Of a DNA stretch of 11,692 nt, positions 1,851-4,738 are shown in pieces. Below the pieces are notes generated by a model. It saw only the letters and a list, made by a program, of their open reading frames with translations, was not told the origin of the DNA and ran no database searches. Within the stretch, counting starts at the first letter, position 1; the number at the start of each line of letters is the position of its first letter. Source of the DNA: a virus. Made by a program: the position numbers and the translations under genes. The stretch lies in UHGV virus genome UHGV-0121323; one strand, given 5' to 3'.

Positions 1851-2174
1851 TTAAATCAGCGGCGTCGATTTACCGCGGGATTTCTGCACCGCATGGATTT
1901 TGTTTCCGAACGGGTTAGCATCTTTGTACCAGGTGCGATGATTCTTGCGCTCAACAGCTTCAGCGCGTTTTTCCATCTCTTCCCGATACTCAGCCAGCAC
2001 CGTTAAATCAATCGGGTTCAGAGCGCTTTCTACGCGTGATTTCGGTTTGCGATTCAGCGAGAGAATAGGGCGGTTAACTGGTTTTGCGCTTACCCCAACC
2101 AACAGGGGATTTGCTGCTTTCCATTGAGCCTGTTTCTCTGCGCGACGTTCGCGGCGGCGTGTTTGTGCATCCAT
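1851..2174 (-). CDS. N: Antitermination protein N (lambda-type)
   Basis: Translation begins MDAQTRRRERRAEKQAQWKAANPLLVGVSAKPVNRPILSLNRKPKSRVESALNPIDLTVLAEY, which is the lambda N arginine-rich boxB-binding motif and N-terminal two-thirds as I remember them; the C-terminal ~45 aa differ from my memory of lambda N. AGGAGAA RBS; lies downstream of nutL and pL. Confidence 0.9.
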   Translation of the reverse strand: MDAQTRRRERRAEKQAQWKAANPLLVGVSAKPVNRPILSLNRKPKSRVESALNPIDLTVLAEYREEMEKRAEAVERKNHRTWYKDANPFGNKIHAVQKSRGKSTPLI

Positions 2175-2442: not shown

Positions 2443-2473
2443 GCCCTTCTTCAGGGCTAAATTTTTAAGAGCC
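2443..2473 (-). promoter_or_regulatory. nutL (boxA-like GGCTCTTA plus boxB GCCCTGAAGAAGGGC)
   Basis: Minus-strand sequence GGCTCTTAAAAATTTAGCCCTGAAGAAGGGCAGC; the boxB hairpin is GCCCTGAAGAAGGGC (2443..2457), matching the lambda nutL boxB as I remember it. Confidence 0.8.
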
Positions 2474-2512
2474 TCACCTTCATGGTGGTCAGTGCGTCCT
2501 GCTGATGGCTTA

Positions 2513-2541
2513 AAGATAACTTAGGTTATAGGTGTGGTCAA
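2513..2541 (-). promoter_or_regulatory. pL-type promoter (-35 TTGACC, 17-bp spacer, -10 TATCTT)
   Basis: On the minus strand TTGACC (2536..2541) and TATCTT (2513..2518) are separated by 17 bp; the downstream transcript start region CCATCAGCAGGACGCACTGACCACCATGAAGGTGA resembles the lambda pL leader from memory. Confidence 0.6.
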
Positions 2542-2554
2542 TAACCTAATTTAT
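2516..2554. promoter_or_regulatory. OL operators: two 14-bp sites of form ATAAC-N4-GTTAT overlapping pL
   Basis: ATAACTTAGGTTAT (2516..2529) and ATAACCTAATTTAT (2541..2554), centres 25 bp apart; a degenerate third copy ATAACAAAGGTAT lies at 2585..2597. Same motif as the OR sites. Confidence 0.5.
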
Positions 2555-2728
2555 ATTTTATGGTAAATAAGTTATAAGTGATGGATAACAAAGGTATTTT
2601 ATTTTTGTAAATGTTGCTGATTGATTGGTGTTTGAGGGCTTGCGTGCGGGGTGAAGGTGTTACCTTTGGCTTGATGCTTGTCTATGATGAGGATGGTTGA
2701 TTGGGTGGTGAACGGCAGGAAAAGAAAA

Positions 2729-2753
2729 CCCGGCGCTGAGGCCGGGTGTTTTT
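2729..2753. terminator. Hairpin terminator at the end of the cI transcription unit (tImm-like), potentially bidirectional
   Basis: CCCGGC (2729..2734) / GCCGGG (2741..2746) stem with a 6-nt loop; T-rich tract on both sides (TGTTTTT on plus, TTTTCTTTTCC on minus). Confidence 0.6.
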
Positions 2754-3048
2754 AGTCTTTTCTTTTGCTTAGCATTTCGTCGATTTCTAAGTCAATACGA
2801 TATTGATCTATTGCTTTTCTCTCGTTTGGGGTTGGTATTTTATACTGTTCAATTAGATCTGTTGTGTATTTTATTTCATCTAATGTGATTTTTATATCAG
2901 AGAGAATCTCTTTTATATCAATTATATGCTCTTCTTATTTTGCGCGATTAGAGCTATGTTCAATCATTTGAGATAGCTTTTTGCTAATGCTTAGCAAAAC
3001 AAAAAGAATGATGACCAAAACAACAACAAAAACTATCAGAAATTCCAT
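2752..3048 (-). pseudogene. Small membrane-protein gene at the cI-downstream (rexAB-equivalent) position, interrupted by an in-frame TAA; a 37-aa N-terminal transmembrane peptide (2935..3048) remains translatable
   Basis: ATG at 3048 with GGAGGG just upstream; translation MEFLIVFVVVLVIILFVLLSISKKLSQMIEHSSNRAK then TAA (plus 2935..2937), then 59 further open in-frame codons (EEHIIDIKEILSDIKITLDEIKYTTDLIEQYKIPTPNERKAIDQYRIDLEIDEMLSKRKD) with no ATG/GTG/TTG until near the end, finishing at TAA 2752..2754 directly before the terminator. The region is markedly AT-rich compared with its flanks. Confidence 0.4.
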
Positions 3049-3088
3049 TATCCCTCCGCACTTCCGTAAGTCTTCTTCTGATTATCGG

Positions 3089-3796
3089 TTACCAACTATG
3101 AGACGACCAGAATACTCTGCCAATAATCCTTACGGTTTCATGAAATTCATCTCTATCCATTACTTCATCCGGGTACTCTTCGCGATTTATTGATCTGATT
3201 ATCACCGATGTAGGGGTGGCGATTAATGTTTTTACTCGTAACAAATCAGACTGGCAAATAGCGTAGGTTTTACCATCTCTGATTGTGGTATCTTGCGTGT
3301 TAACACCAACAACATCGCCATCGTGAAGGGTTGGTTCCATGCTTTGCCCTACAACCCTAACTAGCTTGGCTGATCTTTCAGATACTCCCATCTTTTTCAG
3401 ATAGTGCTTTCTGAAAACCAAAGAGAACTCCGATGATTCCTCTAGCTCGCAGCTACCGCTTCCAGCTGAAAGCGAAACGTTAAGAAGAGGCAACGCAACA
3501 AACTCGTCATCGTTTCTTTTAATGTCTTCCCATACCACAGCTTTTAAAGATGACTCACGGACATTGGATGGTTCTTCATGTGCACCATCCCTCATTTCAC
3601 CAATACCAGAACTAAGCCATTCAGGACGCACTTTTAAAGCATTGGCTAATTCAACCATCTTGCGAGATCCGTTTGTTTTACCGGACGACATCTTCTGTAT
3701 GGCTGGCTGAGATATTCCAACCATGTCAGCAAGCTGTGATTGTGATACCCCTGCTGAGCTCATGGCTGCATTTAGTCTTTCTGCGAATGTTTTCAT
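3089..3796 (-). CDS. cI: CI-type prophage repressor (N-terminal HTH, C-terminal LexA/S24-like autocleavage domain)
   Basis: Translation from the ATG at 3796: MKTFAERLNAAMSSAGVSQSQLADMVGISQPAIQKMSSGK... (HTH), with a C-terminal region containing GQSMEPTLHDGDVV (Ser nucleophile context) and a downstream Lys (LLRVKTLI). Divergent from the cro gene across an operator cluster. The track start at 3826 is a TTG inside the operators and is rejected. Confidence 0.85.
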   Translation of the reverse strand: MKTFAERLNAAMSSAGVSQSQLADMVGISQPAIQKMSSGKTNGSRKMVELANALKVRPEWLSSGIGEMRDGAHEEPSNVRESSLKAVVWEDIKRNDDEFVALPLLNVSLSAGSGSCELEESSEFSLVFRKHYLKKMGVSERSAKLVRVVGQSMEPTLHDGDVVGVNTQDTTIRDGKTYAICQSDLLRVKTLIATPTSVIIRSINREEYPDEVMDRDEFHETVRIIGRVFWSSHSW

Positions 3797-3808
3797 ACCC
3801 ACAAATCT

Positions 3809-3871
3809 ATAACTACGGTTATCCAAAGTAAAATAACAAAGGTTATTGCTATTTTTTATAACTTGAGTTAT
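3809..3871. promoter_or_regulatory. OR operators: three 14-bp sites ATAAC-N4-GTTAT
   Basis: ATAACTACGGTTAT (3809..3822), ATAACAAAGGTTAT (3833..3846), ATAACTTGAGTTAT (3858..3871); centre-to-centre spacing 24 and 25 bp, between the divergent cI and cro genes. An abutting inverted pair GTTATAAC sits at 3878..3885. Confidence 0.6.
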
Positions 3872-3874
3872 CTT
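3846..3874 (+). promoter_or_regulatory. pR-type promoter (-35 TTGCTA, 17-bp spacer, -10 TATCTT)
   Basis: TTGCTA 3846..3851 and TATCTT 3869..3874 overlap operator sites 2 and 3; the -10 hexamer is the same as in the pL call. Confidence 0.45.
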
Positions 3875-3907
3875 TGGTTATAACTAATGACCACAAGAGG
3901 TATGCTC

Positions 3908-4132
3908 ATGAATTTAGTAATTCAACGAGCCTTGAAAATTGTCGGTAGCCAAAAGCGCCTTGCCGACAAGTGTGGTGTAACGCAGCCAGCAGTACACAAA
4001 TGGCTGAAAGGCGGGTTGGTCTCTCCAGAGAAAGTTACCGCCATCGTTAACGCCACTGGAGGGCAGATCAAGGCTTACGAAATTCGCCCCGATTTGCCAC
4101 ACCTGTTTCCAAAACCGAATCAGGCAGCATAA
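3908..4132 (+). CDS. cro: Cro-like small HTH repressor (74 aa)
   Basis: AAGAGG (3895..3900) lies 7 nt upstream of the ATG at 3908; translation MNLVIQRALKIVGSQKRLADKCGVTQPAVHKWLKGG... carries an HTH; first rightward gene after OR/pR. The track start at 3887 has no RBS. Confidence 0.75.
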   Translation: MNLVIQRALKIVGSQKRLADKCGVTQPAVHKWLKGGLVSPEKVTAIVNATGGQIKAYEIRPDLPHLFPKPNQAA

Positions 4133-4139
4133 ATAACCC

Positions 4140-4171
4140 CGCTCTTACACATCCCAGCCCTGAAAAAGGGC
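4140..4171 (+). promoter_or_regulatory. nutR (boxA CGCTCTTA plus boxB GCCCTGAAAAAGGGC)
   Basis: CGCTCTTACACATCCCAGCCCTGAAAAAGGGC; boxA 4140..4147 and boxB hairpin 4157..4171, followed by a tR1/cII-leader-like segment that matches lambda as I remember it. Confidence 0.8.
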
Positions 4172-4250
4172 ATCAAATTAAACCACACCTATGGTGTATG
4201 CATTTATTTGCATACATTCAATCAATTGTTATCTAAGGAAATACTTACAT

Positions 4251-4544
4251 ATGGTTCGTGCAAACAAACGCAACGAGGCTCTACGAATCGAGAGTGCGTT
4301 GCTTAACAAAATCGCAATGCTTGGAACTGAGAAGACAGCGGAAGCTGTGGGAGTTGATAAGTCGCAGATCAGCAGGTGGAAGAGGGACTGGATTCCAAAG
4401 TTCTCAATGCTGCTTGCTGTTCTTGAATGGGGCGTCGTTGACGACGATATGGCTCGATTGGCACGACAAGTTGCTTCGATTCTCACCAATAAAAAACGCC
4501 CGGCGGCAACCGAGCGTTCTGAACAAATCCAGATGGAATTCTGA
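4251..4544 (+). CDS. cII: Transcriptional activator CII (lambda-type)
   Basis: Translation MVRANKRNEALRIESALLNKIAMLGTEKTAEAVGVDKSQISRWKRDWIPKFSMLLAVLEWGVVDDDMARLARQVASILTNKKRPAATERSEQIQMEF is lambda CII essentially residue for residue from memory. The track start at 4191 is an upstream extension into the leader. Confidence 0.92.
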   Translation: MVRANKRNEALRIESALLNKIAMLGTEKTAEAVGVDKSQISRWKRDWIPKFSMLLAVLEWGVVDDDMARLARQVASILTNKKRPAATERSEQIQMEF

Positions 4545-4570
4545 GGTCATTACTGGATCAATCCACAGGA
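4490..4570 (-). ncRNA. OOP-like antisense RNA region overlapping the 3' end of cII (boundaries approximate)
   Basis: The cII 3' end and downstream sequence match the lambda arrangement from memory: on the minus strand a CATAAT -10-like hexamer (revcomp of 4574..4579), then the hairpin/T-run GCCGCCGGGCGTTTTTTATTGG (revcomp of about 4483..4506). The -35 region is not lambda-like, so expression is uncertain. Confidence 0.4.
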
Positions 4571-4576
4571 GTCATT

Positions 4577-4738
4577 ATGACAAAACGTCGTAAGAAATAC
4601 CAGGAAAAAGAAGAGATTCGACACCCTGATTCACCTGAGGGATTAGTGGTAGCCGCAGCAAATAACAGGGCGTTCGCAGAGCGCCTTGTTGGTGTTTACA
4701 GACTAGCCAAAGCAGGAGTGAAACATGGGCGTCGTTAA
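4577..4738 (+). CDS. Small basic ORF (53 aa) using the lambda O-type start site; possible chimeric junction ORF
   Basis: AGGAG (4567..4571) lies 5 nt before the ATG at 4577; the start context CAGGAGTCATTATGACAAA is the lambda O initiation region from memory, after which the sequence diverges. Translation MTKRRKKYQEKEEIRHPDSPEGLVVAAANNRAFAERLVGVYRLAKAGVKHGRR; the stop at 4736..4738 overlaps the start of the next gene. Confidence 0.4.
   Translation: MTKRRKKYQEKEEIRHPDSPEGLVVAAANNRAFAERLVGVYRLAKAGVKHGRR

Follow-up and report, generated by a model that had tools for sequence, protein, structure and literature searches.

Which repressor specificity is carried by a lambdoid phage whose early control region resembles that of lambda on both sides and differs from it in between? 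The question is raised by an 11,692-nucleotide stretch of the virus genome UHGV-0121323 (hereafter the window; all positions are counted from its first letter), in which the repressor gene cI, the gene cro and the operator clusters beside them do not look like their lambda counterparts. An earlier reading of this DNA (the original prediction) took the locus for a classic heteroimmune cassette substitution with operators of the form ATAAC-N4-GTTAT and left its specificity unnamed. We find that positions 2508-4124 very likely represent a complete lambdoid immunity module that was recombined into a phage with lambda-type N, nutL, nutR, cII and PRE. As judged by sequence, the specificity of the module is that of the HK639/PA28/SH2026Stx1/Stx1a_10051 type, i.e. 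clade V of the CI repressors of Shiga toxin (Stx) phages.

Results

Five operator palindromes in two clusters

The whole window was searched for the operator pattern ATAACNNNNGTTAT with at most one mismatch. Five matches were identified, starting at 2516, 2541, 3809, 3833 and 3858, and none elsewhere; 200 dinucleotide-preserving shuffles gave a chance expectation of 0.21 such sites, and none of the 200 reached five. A position weight matrix trained on the operator sites of four related phages scored the five operators at 17.7-23.4 bits, with the runner-up position in the window at 9.1 bits. Three of the sites form the right operator (OR) between cI and cro. OR3 (3809-3822, ATAACTACGGTTAT), identified by pattern, weight matrix and conservation, lies within the spacer and the -10 hexamer of the predicted cI promoter PRM; OR2 (3833-3846, ATAACAAAGGTTAT) abuts the PRM -35 hexamer and overlaps the pR -35 hexamer by one base; and OR1 (3858-3871, ATAACTTGAGTTAT) overlaps the pR -10 hexamer. 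In the left operator (OL), OL1 (2516-2529, ATAACTTAGGTTAT, 23.4 bits) overlaps the pL -10 hexamer and OL2 (2541-2554, ATAACCTAATTTAT, one mismatch) abuts the pL -35 hexamer. Successive sites start 24 and 25 bp apart at OR and 25 bp apart at OL. The three 14-bp palindromes at OR and the 24-25 bp spacing described in the original prediction are thus borne out, while its two or three OL sites come down to two full operators. Cooperative repressor binding, which it deduced from the spacing, would fit these lambda-like distances by analogy.

The OR sites are conserved well beyond close relatives. When one genome per species was searched with Cro as the query, loci from Enterobacter, Serratia, Xenorhabdus and Symbiopectobacterium were added, each of which contains three OR sites, again 24 and 25 bp apart. 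With OR from six loci of five genera aligned without gaps, the 30 half-site columns show a mean pairwise identity of 96.9%, with 28 of the 30 invariant, compared with 51% for the central N4 columns and 50% for the other intergenic columns.

Across more distant relatives, the half-site and the recognition helix change together. The window, PA28 and HK639 combine the CI and Cro helices SQPAIQK and (T/S)QPAVHK with the half-site ATAAC; UPF_BP1, with close variants in PhiR34_1 and phiEt88, combines SQAAIQK and SQAAVQK with ACAAC; and ST104 combines AQPTIWR and KQPTVWR with ATACG. The Cro proteins of these sister phages (UPF_BP1 and ST104 from Salmonella, the coliphage PhiR34_1 and the Erwinia phage phiEt88) are 56-59% identical to that of the window. 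Their OR regions also carry sites of the 5-N4-5 form, the outer sites of the ACAAC group being 47-48 bp apart; the middle site, like the complete layout in ST104, was assigned by eye. Given the half-sites ACAAC and ATACG and the matching helix changes, these phages should be heteroimmune to the window phage.

These observations support the view that the palindromes act as the operators of the cassette. It could be argued that they are bound by Cro alone or by a third regulator and that CI uses other sequences in OR and OL, since sequence by itself cannot tell which protein binds, and the repressor of BAA2326, an O104:H4 Stx2a phage, was footprinted on weakly symmetric, dissimilar operators (PMC5977221). 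We consider this explanation very unlikely. CI and Cro have the helix motif QPA(I/V)xK in common, and among relatives the half-site varies with the helices of both proteins. Moreover, no other repeated element is conserved in OR, where the non-operator columns are only about 50% identical, and the sites are superimposed precisely on the -10 and -35 hexamers, as they are in lambda, 434 and phi80.

The cI-cro switch and its promoters

The product of cI (3089..3796, minus strand) has 235 residues, with an N-terminal HTH_3 domain and a self-cleaving S24 domain at the C-terminus (Pfam Peptidase_S24, 1.4e-17; HTH_3, 7.8e-7). In an alignment with lambda CI, Ala111-Gly112 falls on the cleavage site and Ser152 and Lys189 fall on the catalytic residues, which gives the protein the make-up of a lambdoid repressor: an N-terminal helix-turn-helix joined to a LexA-like S24 domain with an Ala-Gly site and a Ser/Lys dyad. 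The divergent cro (3908..4132, plus strand; 74 residues) is preceded by the Shine-Dalgarno sequence AAGAGG at 3895-3900. Cro belongs to Pfam YdaS_toxin, a Cro-like helix-turn-helix family (1.1e-17), scores below the curated cut-off for P22_Cro (1.1e-5) and finds its best Protein Data Bank (PDB) match in Xfaso1 Cro. The recognition helices of the two proteins are near-identical, SQPAIQK in CI and TQPAVHK in Cro. The 111-bp gap between the genes is filled by the three 14-bp dyads, which overlap the hexamers of pR and the predicted PRM, and the second operator cluster of the same type lies over pL on the far side of cI. This is the arrangement of a lambdoid switch, with divergent cI and cro and multiple operators overlapping the promoters.

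The pL promoter (2541..2513, minus strand) was called by the promoter scan, with a -35 hexamer TTGACC (2541..2536), a 17-bp spacer and a -10 hexamer TATCTT (2518..2513), and both hexamer positions are kept in seven related loci. The pR promoter (3846..3874, plus strand) was read directly from the sequence, with TTGCTA (3846-3851), a 17-bp spacer and TATCTT (3869-3874); its -10 pattern TATNNT is retained in six loci. The two promoters thus share the -10 hexamer TATCTT, as had been noticed before, and they mirror each other, the arms 2512-2530 and 3857-3875 being 89% complementary. The predicted PRM (3832..3804, minus strand), also read from the sequence, consists of TTTACT (3832..3827), a 17-bp spacer and TAGATT (3809..3804), and all six divergent relatives compared keep both the -10 pattern TANATT and the distance from it to the cI ATG. 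Transcription from PRM is predicted to start on or beside the cI ATG at 3796, which would yield a leaderless mRNA as in lambda. In lambda, a PRM -35 hexamer abutting OR2 is the activating geometry, and the predicted PRM shows the same arrangement.

The near-site TTATCTTTGGTTAT at 3868-3881 (9.1 bits) overlaps OR1 by 4 bp; its GGTTAT part is found in PA28 and not in HK639. At OL, the right half of OL2 is imperfect in all seven related loci through a G-to-T change, reading TTTAT (TTCAT in Xenorhabdus). Positions 2562-2575 and 2585-2598 carry half-sites only in the window. The former is a possible weak OL3 proposed from the alignment, in which the right half-site GTTAT (2571-2575) alone is kept; this half-site is invariant in seven loci, and the stretch aligns with a fuller OL3 that lies 21 bp from OL2 in HK639, Enterobacter and Serratia. 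The latter is a possible fourth weak site (6.3 bits) with a kept ATAAC half (2585-2589) and a degenerate right half (GTATT), and its GATAAC is conserved in six of seven loci. Beyond OL2, a conserved pattern can be seen of two outward-facing half-sites, GTTAT and, about 9 bp further on, ATAAC, with a run of T behind them.

Relatives and specificity type of the cassette

The segment 2494-4146 is 99.4% identical to the Stx1a-converting phage Stx1a_10051 and to a prophage of the O26:H11 strain H19; the H19 locus is a P22-like prophage without stx. Over cI-cro, the DNA identity is 94% to SH2026Stx1 and 78% to PA28. This immunity type is common in E. coli: of 5,426 complete genomes, 99 contain the whole cassette at about 99% identity. 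The exact CI and the exact Cro proteins were each found on at least 1000 contigs, all under generic names, a distribution that speaks for a functional gene under selection. Among 50,697 phage records, only 20 contain a CI of at least 60% identity, and the matches listed are all Stx-converting phages (SH2026Stx1, PA28 and Stx1a phages).

The window CI shares 84.8% identity with the CI of PA28 type and differs in few residues from the full-length SH2026Stx1 open reading frame. In the classification of Stx-phage CI proteins, the PA28-type CI (JH2010 type) is assigned to clade V (PMC10458857), of which SH2026Stx1 YP_009907967.1 is also a member (Fagerlund et al. 2022, PMC8951638). The latter protein is annotated with 189 residues and described as having no helix-turn-helix domain (PMC8951638). 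Its frame extends upstream to an ATG (4003-4710 of the locus compared) and encodes an intact 235-residue CI with the helix-turn-helix, so the missing domain is an annotation artefact.

The helix SQPAIQK and ATAAC-N4-GTTAT sites at OR1-3 and OL1-2 are common to the window, PA28 and HK639, with the sites in the same places and the central four bases varying; SH2026Stx1 and Stx1a_10051 likewise have these three OR and two OL sites, equally spaced. HK639 has an identical recognition helix, a CI N-terminal domain 85% identical and a Cro 84% identical to those of the window; it differs in its CI C-terminal domain, which is 23% identical, and in having a full OL3. High CI identity to the clade V phages and the same helix and half-sites as in HK639 thus assign the cassette, on sequence grounds, to the type named above, with the clade placement itself taken from the two papers. 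HK639, PA28, SH2026Stx1 and Stx1a_10051 have other N/nut, replication and CII modules, whereas the flanks in the window are of lambda type. No operator sequence is given in these phage records or in the clade V papers. A full-text search for the operator strings returned an unrelated primer match alone, and literature searches for HK639 and PA28 returned no operator description.

Borders of the module in the lambda-type backbone

The window was compared with lambda 33000-46500 by blastn. Blocks of lambda identity cover N (1925-2221, 89%), nutL with the pL leader as far as the pL start (2413-2507, 97.9%), and the last cro codons, nutR, tR1, cII and the start of O (4125-4584, 98%). Lambda identity ends at 2507 and resumes at 4125, which defines a non-lambda block of 2508-4124 from the pL start to the last cro codons. 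Within this block no lambda match was found by blastn except a patch at the t_imm terminator (2701-2747), which agrees at 87% with lambda 35780-35825, a stretch downstream of rexB.

The backbone genes and sites agree closely with lambda. The N antiterminator (1851..2174, minus strand; 107 residues; Pfam N36, E 3.7e-26) is identical to lambda N over residues 1-63 and diverges over the last 44 (window 1851-1985). The nutL boxB (2443..2457, minus strand, GCCCTGAAGAAGGGC) is an exact lambda match, and nutR (4140..4171, plus strand) has exact lambda motifs in boxA CGCTCTTA (4140-4147) and boxB GCCCTGAAAAAGGGC (4157-4171). CII (4251..4544, plus strand; Pfam Phage_CII, 1.7e-48) has 96 of 97 residues as in lambda, and the PRE -35 element TTGC-N6-TTGC (4260-4273, minus strand) lies within cII, also in the backbone.

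The exchange can be confined to two short stretches. On the left, lambda identity runs to 2507 and HK633/Sf6 identity to 2514, while identity to the O26/Stx1a-type cassette starts at 2494; the 21 bp of 2494..2514, at the pL start, are common to the lambda/Sf6/HK633-type left flank and the cassette. On the right, lambda identity starts at 4125 and O26/Stx1a cassette identity runs to 4146; the 22 bp of 4125..4146, comprising the last cro codons and nutR boxA, are common to the cassette and the lambda-type flank. Since the identities overlap at 2494-2514 and 4125-4146, the exchange must lie in these shared stretches. Lambda/434 (imm434) hybrids likewise join in the last cro codons. No record in the collections searched showed this cassette joined to N, nut and cII of lambda type; for lambdoid mosaics this is nothing unusual.

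Measured against these borders, most of the original prediction stands. Its lambda-derived nutL, pL leader, nutR, cII and N-terminal part of N are confirmed by the 97.9% and 98% blocks and the exact boxes, its non-lambda cI, cro and operator clusters all fall in the block free of lambda matches apart from the t_imm patch, and the heteroimmune substitution in a lambda-type N/nut/cII backbone is supported by the borders together with the operator evidence. The cassette was also correctly located, but its proposed extent of 2510-3890 was too narrow, as the non-lambda block reaches from 2508 to 4124 and includes cro except for its last codons.

Outside the module, the region from nutL to the N start codon (2222-2412) has 191 bp of non-lambda DNA in place of 81 bp in lambda, and the left flank overall resembles Sf6, HK633 and HK446. 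On the far side, lambda identity ends at 9845, so the gene in the Q position (9843-10331) is not lambda Q. Unlike many relatives, the window leaves no space for stx between this gene and the holin (region 9843-10820). A tRNA scan of the window found none, and an Rfam scan of the window at gathering thresholds gave no matches.

The rex-position gene and the terminator

The rex position, downstream of cI, is taken by a small gene (2752..3048, minus strand), which encodes 98 residues with an N-terminal membrane helix in relatives. In the window a base change at 2937 creates a stop codon after residue 37; the gene is intact in strain H19 and phage Stx1a_10051. Its product corresponds to phrog_18389, of unknown function, and has no Pfam match above the cut-off. 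The cI operon ends at an intrinsic, t_imm-like terminator (2728..2747, minus strand) identified by the terminator scan. Between OL and this terminator there is a G/T-rich stretch of about 130 bp (2600-2727), in which neither an open reading frame of at least 40 codons nor an Rfam match was found.

The nonsense codon could suggest that the prophage is decaying and that the module no longer functions, its sites being conserved by recent descent alone. In the same direction, no record among the phages or the E. coli genomes of the two collections covers more than 57% of the whole window, and none of them gives its exact source mosaic. Such decay is nevertheless extremely unlikely as an explanation of the module: the reading frames of cI, cro, cII and N are intact, and the conservation of the sites reaches other genera with about 50%-identical surrounding DNA, so that it is not a product of recent descent.

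Discussion

A working switch of the lambda pattern is the reading of 2508-4124 that we prefer, and several points weigh against it. The simple promoter scan called neither PRM nor pR, both of which were placed by our own reading of the sequence, and a putative pR given in the HK639 record differs from ours. With no full third OL operator in the window, lambda-style looping that depends on OL3 may not apply. The nonsense codon in the rex-position gene means that the window copy may be decaying. Finally, no binding, footprint or transcription data for this repressor were found in the searchable literature.

By analogy with lambda and 434, we infer that the switch would work as follows. A CI dimer with a 434-like helix-turn-helix would bind the 14-bp ATAAC-N4-GTTAT sites. 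At OR1/OR2 and OL1/OL2 it would cover the -10 and -35 hexamers of pR and pL and turn early transcription off. At OR2, placed against the weak PRM -35 hexamer, CI would probably activate cI transcription from the leaderless start, and OR3, lying inside PRM, would allow PRM to be shut off at high CI. Cro, with its near-identical recognition helix, would bind the same sites and oppose CI. RecA-stimulated self-cleavage at Ala111-Gly112 through Ser152 and Lys189 would lead to prophage induction, and the backbone would contribute lambda-type CII acting at PRE for establishment and lambda-type N acting at nutL and nutR for antitermination.

The comparison of relatives also raises a broader idea. One and the same N-terminal domain type is found with at least three unrelated or distant CI C-terminal domains, and this mosaicism within cI, with three distinct C-terminal types on one N-terminal domain and operator type, extends across genera. 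The CI N-terminal domain, Cro and the operators may form a portable specificity unit with 434-like docking and a simple helix code, which recombines independently of the CI C-terminal domain; we regard this sequence-based proposal as about equally likely to prove right or wrong. In such a code, Gln-Pro would read A-T at operator positions 1-2 and Gln-Ala would read A-C, and the C-terminal pair Gln-Lys or Trp-Arg would read positions 4-5 as A-C or C-G, respectively. If the unit is portable, phages of identical immunity could differ in cooperativity and in how sensitive they are to RecA-driven induction, which matters for Stx phages.

The locus is a functional-looking, widespread immunity module of known architecture, with a specificity that is catalogued by sequence and for which no published biochemical characterisation was found. 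For general biology the gain is small, as this is another lambdoid module exchange at short conserved junctions. The practical value is modest and consists in spelling out, for the clade V/HK639 type, the operator consensus ATAAC-N4-GTTAT together with a map of the promoters. This type occurs on Stx1 and some Stx2a phages, and repressor properties influence toxin release (PMC10458857, PMC5977221). In addition, the relatives differ by single half-site bases with single helix residues, which makes them a clean natural series for the study of helix-turn-helix specificity.

Comparison with known immunity types

The original prediction had called for a comparison with characterised lambdoid immunity regions and had held that an exact match to a well-known type would make the cassette routine. 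The comparison was run for lambda, 434, P22, HK022, 933W and phi80, all of which are excluded, and the specificity that had been left unnamed can now be named. A match was indeed found in that the cassette agrees almost exactly with deposited sequences and is in this sense routine; the match does not extend to a biochemically characterised classical type.

The more distant candidates differ from the window at several levels. The P22 c2 repressor gives a weak match (E 0.0098). HK022, which was suggested by an "HK022-like" note on ST104, has no CI similarity at E<1e-3, and the motif is absent. The operators of 933W are of the CGTACTGAAAGTACG type, its CI is 29% identical over 79 residues and the motif is absent; the PA28 annotation "Cro of 933W" is not supported by direct comparison, in which the CI, Cro and operators of 933W are unrelated or very distant. 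In phi80 the operators are 19 bp long, CI is 29% identical and the motif is absent. The H-19B immunity region was considered on account of the 99.4% match in H19 and was rejected, as the H19 prophage is not H-19B. The BAA2326 operators show a weak resemblance, with an ATAAC start in OR1 and GGTTAT inside OR3, and are not 5-N4-5 dyads (PMC5977221).

A classical characterised type, in particular that of phage 21, might still have escaped the comparison, as the phage collection consists mostly of complete genomes and partial classical records may be missing from it. We give this possibility very little weight: the six types listed above are excluded by sequence, operator or motif comparison, the few phage records with a similar CI that are listed are Stx-converting, and the sources of the exact proteins bear generic names. 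Assignment to the clade V/HK639 type is preferred.

Lambda itself provides the architecture and not the specificity. Its gene order and operator-promoter geometry are as in the window, and the annotated spacing of adjacent sites is 23-24 bp at OR and 24/20 bp at OL, compared with 24-25 bp here. Lambda specificity is ruled out, since lambda 33000-46500, which runs from OL through OR, contains no ATAAC-N4-GTTAT site. The lambda operators are 17 bp long and of the TATCACCGCCAGTGGTA type, whereas those of the window have 14 bp, and their sequences are unrelated. CI and Cro have no useful sequence identity to their lambda counterparts, and rexA and rexB are replaced by one small gene in the window.

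The closest structural parallel is 434. Among solved structures, the 434 repressor (PDB 2OR1, 1PER, 1RPE, 3CRO) matches the CI N-terminal domain best, with a gap-free alignment at E ~1e-7. The 434 operators read ACAA-N6-TTGT and the 434 recognition helix is TQQSIEQ; the residue numbering used here is that of the 434 co-crystal structures. Gln17 and Gln28 of 434 are kept in the window as Q19 and Q30, whereas Gln29 is replaced by P31 and Gln33 by K35. Both phages have three OR sites and 14-bp operators with A at position 1 and at positions 3-4. The window half-site ATAAC differs in having T at position 2, where 434 has C, and in a specified C at position 5, and its spacer has 4 bp compared with 6 bp in 434. 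In spite of the common fold and operator length, the 434 specificity is ruled out by these operator differences and by the similarity being confined to the N-terminal domain, with about 40% identity as counted from the printed alignment. The window Cro, in turn, belongs with the YdaS/P22_Cro group of Pfam, nearest to Xfaso1 Cro and not to 434 Cro. In conclusion, the module has the gene order and operator-promoter geometry of lambda, a CI N-terminal domain whose nearest solved relative is the 434 repressor, and operators of the type shared with PA28 and HK639.

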